64,000 nt of DNA, from assembly GCA_963727825.1 (NCBI GenBank), contig CAVSHO010000011.1:1-64000 (forward strand), given 5' to 3'. Source of the stretch: Ignavibacteriota bacterium (GTDB lineage Bacteria > Bacteroidota > Ignavibacteria > UBA10030). Position 1 is the first letter of the stretch. Each line of letters begins with the position of its first letter. A program made the translations under genes and the position numbers. Positions 4,631-30,837 of the stretch are shown here, piece after piece. A model generated the notes under the pieces. That model had not been told where the DNA came from, searched no databases, and saw nothing but the letters and a program-made list of their open reading frames with translations.

Positions 4631-4670
4631 CGTATGTTGAGTCTGTGACACTTATATTTGTATCGTAATT

Positions 4671-4857
4671 CATTGGCAAAGTCATAGGAGAGATAGGAGC
4701 GTCTAGATATCTTCCCAGAAGAAGAATATCGTTAACCAGATACTTCTCCCTATGACTTTGTGCTTCTCCAGAATCTGAACAGTACTTTGAGATCCATACT
4801 TCTTGACGTGGAATCCCGTATAACGCACGAGTCTAGATCATACAGAAGCTGCCAATG
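4671..4857 (+). ncRNA. Predicted bridge RNA of IS-A (target loop plus donor loop)
   Basis: Closing stem CATTGGC/GCCAATG; stem CAAAGTCATAGG/CCTATGACTTTG enclosing GAGCGTCT and TAACCAG (match attC); stem GCTTCT/AGAAGC enclosing ACAGTACTT and AACGCACGAG (match circle junction). Confidence 0.85.
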
Positions 4858-4895
4858 TTTCTCTTTTCTTAACCTCTATTTCAAGGAGCTTTACT

Positions 4896-5981
4896 ATGAA
4901 TATCTTAAAACAAACCGTCGGTATCGATGTCTCCTACAAAACTTTCGATGCCAGATTCGGTACCATCGATACTCAACAAGAAATCAACCTATCCGCCTCT
5001 AAATCCTTTAAAAACTCACAGGCTGGATTCAAACTCTTCCTGCGATGGCTTATGAAATTTATCCTCTCTAATGATATTCCCCTCGTCTTTGTGATGGAAG
5101 CCACCGGTGTCTATTATGAACACCTCGCTCACTTCCTCCTTGAGCACGGTTATCACCTCGCCGTCGTTCTACCCAATAAAATAAGAAATTATGCCAAATC
5201 CCTCGAATCTAAATCCAAAACTGATCCTATCGATGCCGCTACTATTACTCGATTCGGACTTGAACGCAAACTCTCATTCTGGACTCCACCTTCAGATACT
5301 CTCAAAACCCTACGCGACTTATGCAGGGAATATCATTGCCTCAAAACTAATATCACACAAATTAAGAATCAACTCCACGCTCTCAAATCTTCTTTCAAGC
5401 CTCACAAAGAGTCTTTCAAACGCAAGACACAACTCCTCATATTTCTCGAACGTCAGGTATCGCTTATTAATAAAGAACTCCATGCATTAGTTAAGACCGA
5501 GCCTGATCTGGCCCAACACCTCAAGAATATCAAAACTGCCAAAGGTCTCGGCGATATTACCATTCTCACCGTTTTAGCTGAGACCCGATGCTTTGAACTC
5601 GTCACCAATCAAAAACAACTTACCAGCTACGCTGGGTTCGACATCGTCTTTAACGACTCCGGCTTGAAAAAAGGAAAAACCTCCATCTCCAAAAAAGGCA
5701 ATTCCTTTATCCGTAAAGCTCTCTTTATGCCTGCCCTCTCTGCCTGTCGGGCTAATCCTCAAATGAAAAAACTATATCAACGCCTTGTCGCTAAAGGCAA
5801 AAATAAAAAACTTGCCATCATTGCCGTCGCCCGTAAATTACTCTTACTGATTTACACTCTCTGGAAATCTAATTCTGTCTATATCCCCAATTATAAACCA
5901 TTGCTCTCGTTGTTGTCCCTGAACAAATTTAAATCATTCGCCCCTGCTTGTTCTTTGACATATTTTCTCTATCGCTCTTGA
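4896..5981 (+). CDS. IS110-family transposase/recombinase (IS-A)
   Basis: GIDVS, VMEATG, KTDPIDA (DEDD RuvC-like), NDSG serine loop, KKGNSFIRKAL, AIIAVARKLL; RBS AAGGAG. Confidence 0.95.
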   Translation: MNILKQTVGIDVSYKTFDARFGTIDTQQEINLSASKSFKNSQAGFKLFLRWLMKFILSNDIPLVFVMEATGVYYEHLAHFLLEHGYHLAVVLPNKIRNYAKSLESKSKTDPIDAATITRFGLERKLSFWTPPSDTLKTLRDLCREYHCLKTNITQIKNQLHALKSSFKPHKESFKRKTQLLIFLERQVSLINKELHALVKTEPDLAQHLKNIKTAKGLGDITILTVLAETRCFELVTNQKQLTSYAGFDIVFNDSGLKKGKTSISKKGNSFIRKALFMPALSACRANPQMKKLYQRLVAKGKNKKLAIIAVARKLLLLIYTLWKSNSVYIPNYKPLLSLLSLNKFKSFAPACSLTYFLYRS

Positions 5982-6081
5982 CTTTTATCACAGTACCTGG
6001 ATATTACAAAAAAGGAACCTCCCGATTTCGTATGTTTAAGATTATCAAGGTCATTAACCAACAAAATAAAAGGAGGTTCCC

Positions 6082-7083
6082 ATGTATTACTCAGGTATAG
6101 ATTTGCATTCAGATAATTCTTACATCACCACAATCGATGAGAGTGGCACAATCGTAAAACGACAACGCCTCGAGAATAACGACGAACTTGTTCTCGATTA
6201 CTTCCACTCTCTGCCCGGTCCTCATCAGGCAGTCGTCGAGTCTACAACAGGTTGGTATTGGCTCAACGATCTCCTCGGCGATAACGGCATCGAGCTTGTC
6301 CTTGCTCATGCCAAATATCTCAAAGCCATCAGCTATGCTAAAGTTAAAACAGATAAAGTCGATTCGCAAACTCTCGCTACACTTTTACGACAAGGCCTTA
6401 TTCCACAAGCACACAAGATCAGCCGTGAACTCCGTGGATTACGCGATACCATGCGCATCCGGCTTAGACTCGTTCAACAACGAACCGCTTGCCTGCTGCG
6501 TCTTTATAGCATTTATGCAAAATTTAACGGCTCTGTCCCTGATCCCTATCGCTTCCAGCTGGCTGTATTAGAGCATACACGCAATACCTTCAGCGATCAA
6601 ATCCTTGCCTTAGAAAAGTCTCTGCATCCTGTCCTGATCCCTAACGACGACATCCAACGACTCTTGAACATTCCAGGTATCGGCAAGCTCTCTGCATTTA
6701 CCATTTACTTAGAAATCGACGGCATAGAACGCTTTATCTCTGATAAACACTTTGTCTCCTATTGCCGTCTCGTGCCTGCTGCTGATAACTCCAATCGCAC
6801 TGTGCATCACCGCTCAAGTAAAGACGGCAATAAATATCTTAAAATCGCTTTCACTGATGCCGCTGTGCATGCCATTCAATTTTATCCTGAATACAAACGC
6901 TTCTATCAGAAATTAGCTCGGCGCTCTTGTGAAGCAACTGCTCGAACCGTCGTTGCAAAAGAACTTGCGAAAATTGTTTTCTATGTCTTAAAGAACAAAA
7001 CACAATATAAAGGTCTCAAAGGACAGCCGATCAGCCGGCATAAATCTCAGCAGTGGCCGCGCCTCTCAAGCCCGGATGCCTAA
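6082..7083 (+). CDS. IS110-family (IS1111-type) transposase
   Basis: GIDLH, VVEST, KTDKVDS (DEDD), IPGIG, SKDGNKYLK. Confidence 0.95.
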   Translation: MYYSGIDLHSDNSYITTIDESGTIVKRQRLENNDELVLDYFHSLPGPHQAVVESTTGWYWLNDLLGDNGIELVLAHAKYLKAISYAKVKTDKVDSQTLATLLRQGLIPQAHKISRELRGLRDTMRIRLRLVQQRTACLLRLYSIYAKFNGSVPDPYRFQLAVLEHTRNTFSDQILALEKSLHPVLIPNDDIQRLLNIPGIGKLSAFTIYLEIDGIERFISDKHFVSYCRLVPAADNSNRTVHHRSSKDGNKYLKIAFTDAAVHAIQFYPEYKRFYQKLARRSCEATARTVVAKELAKIVFYVLKNKTQYKGLKGQPISRHKSQQWPRLSSPDA

Positions 7084-7329
7084 CTGGTAATCTTTATTAC
7101 CTTCGCCTGGATTGGGAAGAGAGTGCGCTGTGCCGTGGTAATATCTGGAATATCTCGCTCAACGAGATAAGTCCCGCTTTCACCCCGGGATAAATCCGTA
7201 AACTGGTTTGGACGGCATTGCTCCGGTAATCGTCTGTCTATTTGATAGAGAACGCGGCATCGGCACGGGTTCGGTCGTCAATAATTGTCAATGAACTCTG
7301 CATTCCGTTTGTACGGAACGCATCGGGCG
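7070..7329 (+). ncRNA. Predicted seek/bridge RNA of IS-B (also in the other three copies)
   Basis: GCCTAACTGG and CGCCTGG match the attC target; GTAATATCTGG and TAAACTGG match the circle junction; stems GCCCGGATGC/GCATCGGGC and TGCCGT/ACGGCA. Confidence 0.8.
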
Positions 7330-7371
7330 TATTTTATCTACTTGACTCTTTCCTTTTTAAACTGGTTAGGC

Positions 7372-13059: not shown

Positions 13060-13218
13060 ACCTAACGGATGGCAACTAAGCTGCGGCAACGATAACCCGC
13101 AAGTTGCTGAAAACGAAACAAGTTCATGCTGAAAAATGAATTATTAAACATATAAACCTCTATGCGCCATGCTTAATGTACCAACGCTCATTCCGTCAGC
13201 TTGAGTTGCTGGTTAGGC
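13060..13218 (-). repeat. attC site 10
   Basis: ACCTAAC...CCGTCAGCTTGAGTTGCTGGTTAGGC. Confidence 0.95.
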
Positions 13219-15157: not shown

Positions 15158-15316
15158 GCCTAACGGATGGCAAGTAAGCTGCGGCAACGAGAAGCCGCAA
15201 GTTGCTGAAAACGAAACAAGTTCATGCTGAAAAGTTTATTATTAAACATCTGAACCTCTATTAGCCATGCTTAACGTACTCACGCTCATTCCGTCAGCTT
15301 GAGTTGCTGGTTAGCT
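15158..15316 (-). repeat. attC site 12 (matches attC 2 apart from the core bases)
   Basis: Part of the duplicated cassette. Confidence 0.95.
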
Positions 15317-16186
15317 GGCGCAAACAAATGTTTCAGAATGTTTCAAATTAAAAAAGTCATAAATATATTTGACATTGATGTCGTCTCTATATAAGACATA
15401 TGCGTTGCCATCCCATCTGCTCATAATTGCAAAATGAAGTTTATTCATATCAAGAGCTTTGAAATAATCCCAAAGTGCAACTTTGTCCTGTTTAATATGT
15501 GAGTGTATCCAGACGCCTTGCAAATATTCTTTAGGCGAACGAGCGATAAATTTTTCGACTGTGTCCTTAAAGAGAATAGCCGAATTATTTATTGGAGGAG
15601 GAATTTGATTCACTCCAGCGTGAATGGAAGGAATTATTTGTTGCATATGTTCAAGCAAATCTTTTATACGATATTTGACATCTAAAAGGATTGGTGTATC
15701 AGATTTCGGTGTAAACAACCAATCAATGGTTCGATTTCCTTCGCCGAGTCTTGGAATTTCATATTGTGGTACTACACCATCTTGTATACGAACCAACGGA
15801 GCCAATTCGGCAAGCGTTATTAGATGTTTAGACGGATCTTTTAATCTGTTAATAAAACTAAGAATTTCCGGTTCCGTCAAATGTTTTTTAATTGCTCGAA
15901 TGCCCAAGTAAAAATCTTCAATTTCGGGAAACTGTTCTGAACCAATAAGGATATAATCCTCTGGCATTCTATCAAAATAATCTCCGTACTCATAACACCA
16001 CTTTTTTATTAGGTTATGGAAAAAGGCTGGTGTCATTTTGATTTCATTCGGCAATAAAATCAGAAGATCGTTTATTAGATCATCATGGTCACCTAAAGAC
16101 TTGCCAAAAGAGAAAAAAGCTTTGTCAAGCGTGGTAAGACCAGTGTAAAATATCTCAGGCAAAGCAGCTAAAAGTGTCATGGTCAT
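15311..16186 (-). CDS. Cassette hypothetical protein (copy 2 of 1197-2072)
   Basis: Identical translation. Confidence 0.8.
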   Translation of the reverse strand: MTMTLLAALPEIFYTGLTTLDKAFFSFGKSLGDHDDLINDLLILLPNEIKMTPAFFHNLIKKWCYEYGDYFDRMPEDYILIGSEQFPEIEDFYLGIRAIKKHLTEPEILSFINRLKDPSKHLITLAELAPLVRIQDGVVPQYEIPRLGEGNRTIDWLFTPKSDTPILLDVKYRIKDLLEHMQQIIPSIHAGVNQIPPPINNSAILFKDTVEKFIARSPKEYLQGVWIHSHIKQDKVALWDYFKALDMNKLHFAIMSRWDGNAYVLYRDDINVKYIYDFFNLKHSETFVCAS

Positions 16187-18114: not shown

Positions 18115-18310
18115 CCCTAACGGAACCGGCGCTAAGCTGCGGCGCTGAATAATTTTCGTGATGTGTCCAACGAAATGAGTTCACGCTGTTTCTTCCATTT
18201 TTCATAATGAACTTTACGCGCCATGCTTAACGTACGAGCCCGCCGACAATAGCTTTTTAGAAAAGCCGGCGGGCGACGCTCATTCCGTCGGCTTGAGCGC
18301 CTGGTTAGGC
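18115..18310 (-). repeat. attC site 14 (unoccupied perfect IS-B target)
   Basis: CCCTAAC...GCTTGAGCGCCTGGTTAGGC. Confidence 0.93.
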
Positions 18311-29606: not shown

Positions 29607-29690
29607 ACCTAACTATGATTAGACTGCACCCGGCAGCCTAACTCGCGTTTTAAGAGTGTTAGACCGCTGATTTCAGCCTAATATGCGTGT
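29607..29690 (-). other. attI site (crossover G|TTAGGT at 29613/29612) with upstream repeats
   Basis: Minus strand GTCTAATCATAG|TTAGGTGCC at the start of the first cassette with no attC arm beyond it; CAGCCTAA repeats at 29634 and 29674. Confidence 0.75.
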
Positions 29691-29877
29691 TTTGTATTAT
29701 AGACTGCGTACGCCGCAGTCCTCCGAAAAGATGCATGCTGTTAGTTTCTGTCCCTATATTCCTCTTGAGAGAATCCGCAACAGCCTAATCCCTTTCTTTG
29801 AAAATAACTTCTTTGTATTTTCTCTTAAGGTTTGCGCTAAACTATTGAATGTCTTTATCAATTGCAAGGGAAATATT

Positions 29878-30837
29878 ATGGCTAACGAAAAAATTCTACA
29901 ACAAGTCCACAATTGCATCCGTACTCTGCATCTTAGTCTTCGCACTGAAGAAGCTTATTGCAATTGGATCAAACGATTTATGAATTTTCACGCTCAAAAA
30001 AATGTGCACGCTATGCGTGAACCGCAGATAGAACAGTTCCTCACTTCGCTCGCCGTGGATGAACAAGTATCAGCATCTACACAAAATCAGGCGCTTAATG
30101 CGATTCTCTTTTTATACCGCGAAGTATTAAATGTGAAGATCGGACTCCTAAAAGATATAATCCGCGCAAAACGAACTGTGCGCATTCCTGTCGTCTTCTC
30201 CCGGGAAGAAATCCAAACTATTTTACATCAGCTCCAGGGAACGTCGGGACTAATTTGTTCGCTATTGTACGGAAGCGGAATGCGCTTATTAGAGTGTATG
30301 CAACTGCGCATAAAGGATATTGATTTTTTGAGGAAACAAATTATTGTCAGGGAAGGAAAGGGCGAAAAAGACCGGATAACACCTCTACCTGTGTCGTTAA
30401 TTCCTCAACTGGAACGGCAAATCGCCAGAGTAAAAGTGATACATCAGGAAGATCGCGCCGCTGGTTATGGCGATGTCTATTTGCCGGATGCTATTCGTAA
30501 AAAATTCCCCCGTGCGGCAAAAGAATTCATGTGGCAATACGTTTTCCCAGCTTCCAAGCGTTCAATGGATCCTATTACAGGCGCGATTCAGCGGCATCAT
30601 CTTGATGAAAGCGCTGTTCAGCGTGCCTTCAAACTTGCATTGCAAAAATCGAAAGTTACAAAGCAGGGAACTGTTCATTCACTCAGACATTCATTCGCAA
30701 CGCATGTGTTGGAATCAGGATACGATATCCGAGTTGTGCAGGAATTATTAGGACATAAGGATGTCCGAACTACTCAAATTTATACACACGTAATGAATCG
30801 CCCTGGAATTTCTGTCCGCAGCCCGCTGGATACATAA
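29878..30837 (+). CDS. intI: Integron integrase (tyrosine recombinase)
   Basis: SASTQNQALNA, LLYGSGMR, GKGEKDR, IntI-specific insert (VYLPDA..KKFP.A...WQYVFP...RHH), HSLRHSFATH, LGHKDVRTTQIYTHV. Confidence 0.97.
   Translation: MANEKILQQVHNCIRTLHLSLRTEEAYCNWIKRFMNFHAQKNVHAMREPQIEQFLTSLAVDEQVSASTQNQALNAILFLYREVLNVKIGLLKDIIRAKRTVRIPVVFSREEIQTILHQLQGTSGLICSLLYGSGMRLLECMQLRIKDIDFLRKQIIVREGKGEKDRITPLPVSLIPQLERQIARVKVIHQEDRAAGYGDVYLPDAIRKKFPRAAKEFMWQYVFPASKRSMDPITGAIQRHHLDESAVQRAFKLALQKSKVTKQGTVHSLRHSFATHVLESGYDIRVVQELLGHKDVRTTQIYTHVMNRPGISVRSPLDT

Follow-up and report, generated by a model that had tools for sequence, protein, structure and literature searches.

The DNA analysed here (the window) is a stretch of 64,000 nucleotides (nt) from an Ignavibacteriota bacterium, contig CAVSHO010000011.1 of assembly GCA_963727825.1. 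Positions 7055-7260 appear to encode the bridge RNA, or seekRNA, of an IS1111-type insertion sequence that inserts into attC sites, a reading to which we give a probability of about 0.82. The region shows the features by which a bridge RNA or seekRNA is recognised, namely two structured loops and a left and a right guide each for the target and the donor. The IS1111 guide-RNA system itself is known. What is new, as read from the sequence, is that half of the target-binding loop is coding sequence of the transposase gene (tnp), and that one of the guides supplies its stop codon. The most likely origin of this arrangement is that the open reading frame (ORF) of tnp runs on into the RNA gene until it meets the UAA of the guide.

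The gene tnp (6082-7083, plus strand) encodes a DEDD/IS110-family RNA-guided transposase (Tnp) of 333 amino acids, which falls within the length range of IS1111 transposases (330-350 amino acids). Tnp contains PF01548 (E 6e-17) and PF02371 (E 1e-18), the domains of the IS1111 group, and matches NF033542, the NCBI model for IS110-family RNA-guided transposases, with 169.5 bits (cut-off 140). The ORF terminates with GCC TAA at 7078-7083, the TAA being 7081-7083. CTGG flanks this copy of the element, copy 1, at 5997-6000 and 7362-7365; therefore the element proper is 1365 bp long (6001-7365, plus strand, one CTGG copy counted). It has 81 nt of non-coding sequence upstream of tnp (6001-6081) versus 282 nt downstream (7084-7365), the long non-coding region 3' of tnp that is typical of IS1111. 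IS1111 elements are defined by subterminal repeats of 7-17 bp that lie 7 nt from the left end and 3 nt from the right end (available text of PMC11187229). The left repeat here, AAAAAGGAA (6009-6017, plus strand), is an exact 9-bp inverted match to the right repeat, TTCCTTTTT (7350-7358, plus strand). The former is preceded by a left extension of 7-8 nt, ATATTAC(A), and the latter lies 3 nt from the end, where AAA meets CTGG. The top-strand guide GCCUAAC (starting at 7078) is 5' of the bottom-strand guide CGCCUGG (starting at 7104), the order published for IS1111. Thus the assignment to IS1111, which the original prediction had made together with the guide order, stands on both domains, the 9-bp repeats, the downstream non-coding region and the order of the guides, and we read the element as IS1111-type. 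The C-terminal IS1111 motif GL-P----S(t)G, however, is not matched: the sequence at this place is R229-L-V-P-A-A-D-N-S237-N238, with the serine kept and both glycines replaced. This catalytic-loop segment, residues 229-238 (6766-6795), reads R-L-V-P-A-A-D-N-S-N against the published G-L-x-P-x4-S/T-G; R229, L230, P232, S237 and N238 are invariant in 40/40 aligned homologues, and residues 232-249 have low model confidence.

Four copies of the element, 100% identical to one another, are present in the window (starts 5996, 8458, 19803 and 23834), and mismatches among them start only past the right end ...TTTAAACTGG. The left junction joins ...GAGCGCCTGG to ATATTAC in 3/4 copies, and the right junction joins ...TTTAAACTGG to TTAGGC (AAACTGG next to TTAGGC) in 4/4. 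Beyond these four copies the genome holds no others, except for one 43-bp relic of the right end. This solo relic (C11:97915-97957, outside the window) is 93% identical and ends with ...AAACTGG joined to TTATGTTGC within another attC-like site; the remainder of the element is missing.

The key evidence comes from relatives of the element. The best 120 of 3789 protein matches are 78-95% identical to Tnp, and these 120 carry 49 different C-terminal hexapeptides after a conserved ...QWPR. The clade that we compared comprises about 140 relatives of 47-95% protein identity, and the loci were taken from named genome records (80, nearly all Ignavibacteria, Bacteroidota or relatives) and from metagenome contigs (80). 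The anchor TGGCC-CG-N6-AAGCCC was present in 136/160 loci; the 24 left out were truncated, frameshifted or diverged. The RNAalifold consensus fold was computed on 50 distinct sequences (7054-7252 in the window and the counterparts), and a fold of the close clade on 42 unique sequences from 60 sufficiently long loci.

The 5' half of the target loop consists of the last ten tnp codons (W-P-R-L-S-S-P-D-A-stop). The loop is closed by a stem, P1, whose 5' arm, GCGCCUCUC (7059-7067, plus strand), lies within the P-R-L-S codons and begins 22 nt before the tnp stop. It pairs with the 3' arm GAGAGUGCGC (7119-7128, U7124 bulged), which has an invariant AUUGGGAA just 5' of it. A second helix, P1b, pairs the CCCG of the invariant AAGCCC motif (7071-7074) with UGGG (7113-7116), and was predicted both by RNAalifold (CCC/GGG) and by the single-sequence fold. 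At the top of the loop is a hairpin, P2 (GGUAAU-CUUU-AUUACC, 7086-7101), which had been noticed as GTAAT..ATTAC in the original prediction; 4/4 of its scored pairs show compensatory changes. The internal loop has GAUGCCUAACU as its 5' strand and CUUCGCCUGGAUU as its 3' strand. Local single-sequence folds recover P1, P1b and P2.

P1 was found unprompted by RNAalifold as nine pairs (columns 6-14 with 79-88 of the alignment), and seven of the nine show compensatory changes. Its cells were paired in 96.2% of cases; shuffles gave 82.8%, and sliding the 3' partner gave 32-41%. The covariation score was 0.457 versus 0.178 in shuffles and was reached by 0/500 of them. The codons that form the 5' arm follow W-P-R and specify L-S, V-Q, I-T, V-V, L-P and other peptides. 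Across all loci there are 25 distinct 5' arms, each with its own complement. Among 57 unique arm pairs, 48 had 8/8 positions paired with their own partner and nine had 7/8, while arms swapped between elements averaged 6.0 pairs. That the closing stem begins inside the coding sequence, as had been proposed together with covariation across homologues as the check, is therefore the best-supported point of the original prediction.

The coding tail itself carries the mark of this stem. Upstream in tnp, the entropy at first, second and third codon positions was 1.06/0.88/1.47 bits (95 distinct ends of the coding sequence), and the third-position excess was lost in codons -9 to -1 (0.75/0.43/0.63 bits), where some third positions are invariant next to fully variable first positions. 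As far as these sequences can tell, the peptide sequence of the tail is set by selection at the RNA level. ISCro4 and IS621 are the only solved-structure homologues that we found for Tnp, and homology to their chains stops at residue 317-318 (8wt6, E 2.4e-4 for IS621). In an AlphaFold2 model built with 40 homologues, the predicted local distance difference test score (pLDDT) was below 50 over residues 316-333, and the last 15-18 residues or so are accordingly modelled as a disordered extension. Because the tail lies outside the IS621/ISCro4 homology and has a pLDDT below 50, we read it as an extension shaped by the RNA.

Four short segments are predicted to serve as guides. The right target guide, GCCUAAC (7078-7084, plus strand), consists of the last codon GCC, the stop codon UAA and a C, and complements the top-strand GTTAGGC. 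The left target guide, CGCCUGG (7104-7110), has the same sense as the left target plus the core. The right donor guide, GUAAUAUC (7138-7145), complements the left end GATATTAC (6000-6007, G + ATATTAC), and the left donor guide, UAAACUGG (7199-7206), is identical to the right end at 7358-7365. All four had been located by the original prediction, as GCCTAACTGG at 7078-7087, CGCCTGG at 7104-7110, GTAATATCTGG at 7138-7148 and TAAACTGG at 7199-7206, and the strings are indeed found at these positions. In 200,000 shuffles of 7054-7361, GCCTAAC occurred with a frequency of 0.014, CGCCTGG with 0.019, GTAATATC with 0.0046 and TAAACTGG with 0.0038; the four words never occurred together (product 4.8e-9).

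We compared each guide with the flank or end of its own element, against permuted pairings among elements with different guides. For each of the four, 0/10,000 permutations were at least as high as the observed value, a covariation across the family that confirms all four guides. The right target guide matched 3.11 of 6 positions versus 2.47 permuted, in the 97 loci (of 124 with a parsed flank) in which the flank starts with TTA and the guide ends with TAAC (92 unique pairs, 28 guides). Flank positions 4, 5 and 6, which correspond to the last tnp codon, matched in 0.80, 0.78 and 0.63 versus 0.63, 0.68 and 0.43 permuted; there was a small excess at positions 7-9 and none at 10-11, in the region of the penultimate codon. 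An extension of this guide into the penultimate codon was rejected: there, matches hardly exceeded those of permuted pairings, as would be expected if this codon drifts freely. These alignments put the functional right target guide at about GCCUAAC, which takes in the final codon of tnp, its stop and a single further base. The left target guide matched 5.49 versus 4.28 permuted of 8 (62 unique pairs, 28 guides), with the signal at -7 to -2. The left donor guide matched 6.29 versus 5.17 (26 unique pairs, 16 guides), with 0.92 at position -3 versus 0.37 expected, and the right donor guide 6.91 versus 6.54 (45 unique pairs, 36 guides), mainly from left-end position 6.

The stop codon within the right target guide, likewise pointed out in the original prediction, is kept throughout the clade: TAA stands at the tenth codon from TGG in 132/136 anchored loci, and the next base is C (T in one locus). 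In the other four, three have TCA and a longer ORF, and one is cut off. The flank starts with TTA, the complement of the UAA in the guide, at 80/82 verified right junctions, that is, at loci where the right end agrees with the left donor guide. We propose that UAA persists because the attC ends targeted by the clade almost always contain the complementary TTA. The sharing of bases was also said to constrain retargeting. The constraint is real but narrow, in that only the last codon covaries with the target. The TCA loci (L019, L148 and one other) are natural stop-loss variants; in L148, the only one of them with a parsed flank, the target still begins with TTA. The ORF of one homologue (P0079, 377 amino acids) continues for about 44 residues through the RNA region.

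One part of the original prediction did not hold, namely that both right-hand guides extend into CTGG with two wobbles, because the trailing TGG lies in covarying or invariant helices. For the target guide, TAAC is followed by T at every anchored locus with one exception (TAAT), and the next bases (G/A, then variable) open P2 (G7086-C7101, G7087-C7100). For the donor guide, the TGG after AUAUC is taken up by the helix 7146-7149/7195-7198, and in relatives whose left junction joins ...TTG to ATATT the CUGG cannot pair with that junction. CUG is nearly invariant after both right-hand guides (7084-7086 and 7145-7147), and in the same relatives its U cannot pair with the core.

The donor-binding domain follows the target loop. 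TGCCGT (7131-7136) and ACGGCA (7212-7217), formerly proposed to close the donor loop, are present as letters, but their central pair can form in 9/42 close relatives. The closing stem is instead better drawn between GCCG (7132-7135) and CGGC (7255-7258), which is formed in 42/42 close relatives, varies at one pair (A-U in three, G-U in two), and also appears in the single-sequence fold. The inner helix pairs UGGA (7146-7149) with UCCG (7195-7198); among the 42, its pair 7149-7195 is G-C 20 times and A-U 19 times, and the other three pairs are invariant. From the sequences compared, the domain is a multiloop with a partly resolved fold, and Durrant et al. describe a multiloop donor domain in many IS1111 elements (available text of PMC11208160). 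The UAUC of the right donor guide (7142-7145) can pair with an invariant GAUA (7244-7247), and in a more distant clade (L029 and others) GAUAUU, a copy of the left-end sequence, stands at that place. In the free RNA, such a pairing would cover the donor guide by a segment that imitates its DNA partner. Further 3', a conserved terminal hairpin (7300-7321, plus strand), whose six pairs show several pair types in the 42 relatives, is followed by UAUUUUAU; it is possibly a 3'-end or terminator element.

The genomic setting fits the predicted target. An integron integrase gene is located at 29683-30837 on the plus strand (TIGR02249, 447 bits). Cassette-sized ORFs at 228-29556 are all on the minus strand, and the plus strand of this part carries transposase genes only. 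We interpret 1-30837 as a chromosomal integron in an Ignavibacteria-like genome, with 17 empty and four occupied attC ends. Empty sites of the form GCTTGAG-N4-CTGGTTAG occur 17 times on the plus strand of the window and 0 times on the minus strand. Since the cassettes are on the minus and the sites on the plus strand, the elements target attC at its GCCTAAC (inverse-core) end and run opposite to the cassettes. All four copies are inserted at a GCCTAAC-type end; the target site sequence for the element is GAGCGCCTGGTTAGGC. The left flank CGCCTGG, which equals the left target guide, is found in 3/3 copies that have an attC left flank and in 2/17 empty sites, so that 3/5 attC ends with CGCCTGG are occupied in the window versus 0/15 others (Fisher p = 0.0088). 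Copy 1 has another element on its left and was for this reason omitted from the table. One of the two empty sites with CGCCTGG, at 18291-18309 (GAGCGCCTGGTTAGGCGCC), is a perfect target that stands unoccupied.

RNA libraries provide some sequences from this region. Contigs from four RNA runs, from relatives at least 85% alike, span both the 3' end of tnp and the non-coding sequence; two of these contigs cross the stop codon (6880-7138 and 6902-7221). A number of observations weigh against the seekRNA interpretation or soften it. These contigs show neither ends nor strand and could come from DNA, and 24 RNA runs contained at most 0.18 of the sampled words. Single-sequence folding energies are unexceptional (z -1.3 to -1.8), and a fold of the whole region 7060-7365 gave a structure unlike the consensus (z = -1.31). 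The fold of the donor domain differs between the consensus and the single sequence, and P1b and several donor-domain helices are invariant, hence covariation speaks neither for nor against them. A search of the whole window against Rfam at gathering thresholds matched no family. Finally, the right target guide matches only about 7 nt, many natural insertions have one or two mismatches, and part of its covariation could come from a host-specific attC composition shared by related elements.

If the region does encode a seekRNA, the following course of events may be proposed. By analogy with ISEc11 and IS621, excision would yield a circle. A -35-like TTGACT in the right end (7342-7347, plus strand) would then lie 17 nt from GATATT (G7365 + 6001-6005), and the two would form a promoter across the circle junction; such a promoter, Pjunc, is established for ISEc11 (available text of PMC11187229). 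The transcript would run through tnp into the RNA, and the transposase would bind this RNA after its excision from the tnp transcript. Within the target loop, closed by P1 and CCCG/UGGG, the guide GCCUAAC of the 5' strand would pair with the top-strand GTTAGGC; in the donor domain next to it, GUAAUAUC would read the left end of the element and UAAACUGG the right end. The two loops would thereby bring the attC end and the circle junction together. We infer the transcription, the processing and the transposase binding of the RNA by analogy with known elements. As the first stem begins 22 nt before the stop, any released RNA would have to include the last part of the ORF, and the loop would have to be opened by each ribosome that completes tnp.

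This geometry raises the question, already put by the original prediction for translation termination and RNA folding or release, of whether the overlap is itself a device that couples translation to the RNA. P1 starts 22 nt ahead of the stop codon, and a terminating ribosome reaches that far; it would have to open P1, P1b and the guide, so that a single transcript would alternate between being translated and having its target loop folded. The finished transposase would moreover be released beside its own RNA (loading in cis), and excision of the RNA would leave a tnp message without a stop codon and so limit the output of transposase. The arrangement is kept over 47-95% protein identity with the stop in the guide in nearly all anchored loci, and ISEc11 and ISPa11 keep gaps of 74 and 39 bp, implying that the overlap is the derived state. 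Conservation, however, is explained equally well by a constraint on the RNA alone. Moreover, the three loci with TCA in place of TAA simply extend the ORF, one homologue reads on for some 44 residues, and a relative in which the loop begins some 5 nt past the stop points to a minor shift in position, not to an overlap by design. We therefore regard an adaptive coupling as possible but unlikely. The same doubt applies to a switch in which each transcript would serve either as message or as guide, newly made transposase being deposited on its own RNA when the loop folds again; if true, it would give the element a built-in cis-preference and self-limitation, and would tie the last residue of the protein to the target sequence.

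Two other explanations would do without a guide RNA that reaches into tnp. If the 3' end of tnp were conserved for its C-terminal peptide, the match to the target would be incidental and the RNA would start after the stop. W-P-R and S-P are indeed invariant or nearly so in the protein, but the residues between them vary freely, each change being matched by a compensating one in the non-coding 3' arm. In the tail, third positions vary less than first positions; this segment is disordered and has no counterpart in the structural homologues, and a loop without 7059-7084 would lose its closing stem and its top-strand guide; we consider this explanation very improbable. Hardly more credible is that the stem-loop across the stop is a translational or messenger RNA (mRNA)-stability element or a terminator, with the target chosen by the protein or by other parts of the RNA. 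Structured 3' ends commonly stabilise messages, and the modest folding z-scores would agree with such a role. Yet both strands of the loop covary with the insertion flanks, the occupied sites of the window are among those that match the left guide, and the layout is the one known from IS1111 seekRNAs that have been verified by experiment.

Other mobile elements use the same attC ends. An IS110-type element (4631-5996, tnp at 4896-5981) is located directly to the left of copy 1 in the same attC, with CT at both of its junctions (GAGCGCCT joined to CGTATG..., and ...CAGTACCT joined to GG); its insertion point is two bases from that of the IS1111-type element. Since its right end adjoins copy 1, copy 1 sits in a site rebuilt by that end (left flank GTACCTGG). 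The long non-coding region upstream of its tnp contains GGAGCGTCT at about 4696, which matches the left target at 7/8 positions, and TTAACCAG (4732-4739), which matches the complement of CTGGTTAG at 7/8, in the IS110 guide order. At 5978-6005, a TTGACT from the right end of this element and the GATATT from the left end of copy 1 are 16 nt apart and form a promoter-like pair directed into the tnp of copy 1. In two relatives (L023 and L044), the right end of a third element type (...CTCTTGACTTTTTACATAAC) is found about 60 nt to the left of the element and abuts the attC a few bases further left, at AGCTTGAG or GGGTTGAT; genomes of this kind thus have at least three kinds of element using this attC end. 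Within the cassette array, a 300-nt stretch (1046-1345) is repeated at 15160-15459 with 100% identity, with a 62% copy at 13062; the identical pair is probably a duplicated cassette.

Among known systems, the element compares most directly with ISEc11 and ISPa11, the only characterised IS1111 elements for which the position of the RNA could be compared, the available ISKpn4 legend giving lengths alone. Their seekRNAs are alike in belonging to a DEDD transposase and lying downstream of tnp; they have two hairpins with internal loops, the target-reading one first and the top-strand match 5', and their elements have subterminal inverted repeats and a circle-junction promoter (Siddiquee et al. 2024, available text of PMC11187229). 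The long forms lie at 74-227 bp (ISEc11) and 39-210 bp (ISPa11) after the stop codon, according to the available part of the preprint by Siddiquee et al. In contrast, the first stem here begins before the stop and the guide contains it. A Paraburkholderia plasmid relative (L168, 35% identity) shows, read by eye, the same series of stem arm, AGCCCG, guide region, ATTGGG and complementary arm, but its stem begins about 5 nt after a TAG stop, its protein stops about 17 residues sooner in the alignment, and the two do not overlap. Because the motif series lies just past the stop in this relative, an ORF that has run on is the simpler reading.

The attC-targeting elements ISKpn4, ISPst6 and ISPa25 (the IS1111-attC group) are also IS1111-type and insert in one orientation at the same end of attC. 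The target of ISKpn4 is split between CGGCTTGAA and CGAATTGTTAG (Table 1 in the available text of PMC13604230), and the fixed position of the group lies between GCTTGAA and CGAATTGTTAG. Our element differs in that it inserts between CTGG and TTAGGC, 11 nt further towards the GTTAG end, in 4/4 copies and in relatives. None of the plasmid-borne transposases among the 5000 best-scoring records is even 36% identical to Tnp, and two plasmid loci considered as ISKpn4 (L086 and L087) proved to be other IS110-family elements with no attC context. The element thus represents a second solution to attC targeting, with a position different from that of the IS1111-attC group and in tandem with an IS110-type element two bases away.

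The bridge RNA of IS621 was reportedly also treated by Hiraizumi et al. 2024. Like the RNA proposed here, it is one RNA with a target and a donor loop, and in each loop the left guide reads the bottom strand and the right guide the top strand, but it lies upstream of the coding sequence and has the opposite guide order and a CT core (Durrant et al. 2024, available text of PMC11208160). According to the same text, these authors sought RNA structures in sequence flanking the coding sequence only; therefore their pipeline would miss or truncate a loop like 7059-7128. Apart from supplements, neither full-text literature searches nor the available text of PMC11187229, its preprint, PMC11208160, PMC13604230, PMC12288879 and PMC13626964 yielded a bridge or seek RNA described as overlapping its recombinase ORF.

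Bridge and seek RNAs have been described as products of non-coding ends, and here a whole IS1111-type clade from environmental bacteria would have a coding half-loop with a programmable guide. For annotation, the boundaries of such RNAs cannot be assumed to end at the ORF. For engineering, retargeting of the right guide would alter the last residue of the protein or remove its stop codon. For mechanism, the overlap offers a natural system for asking whether transposase synthesis and RNA loading are coupled. A guide-RNA gene that overlaps the 3' end of the ORF of its own protein is familiar from the omega and right-end RNAs of TnpB and IscB. In those systems it is the scaffold that overlaps the ORF, with the guide outside the element, whereas here a guide segment is made of coding sequence, stop codon included.

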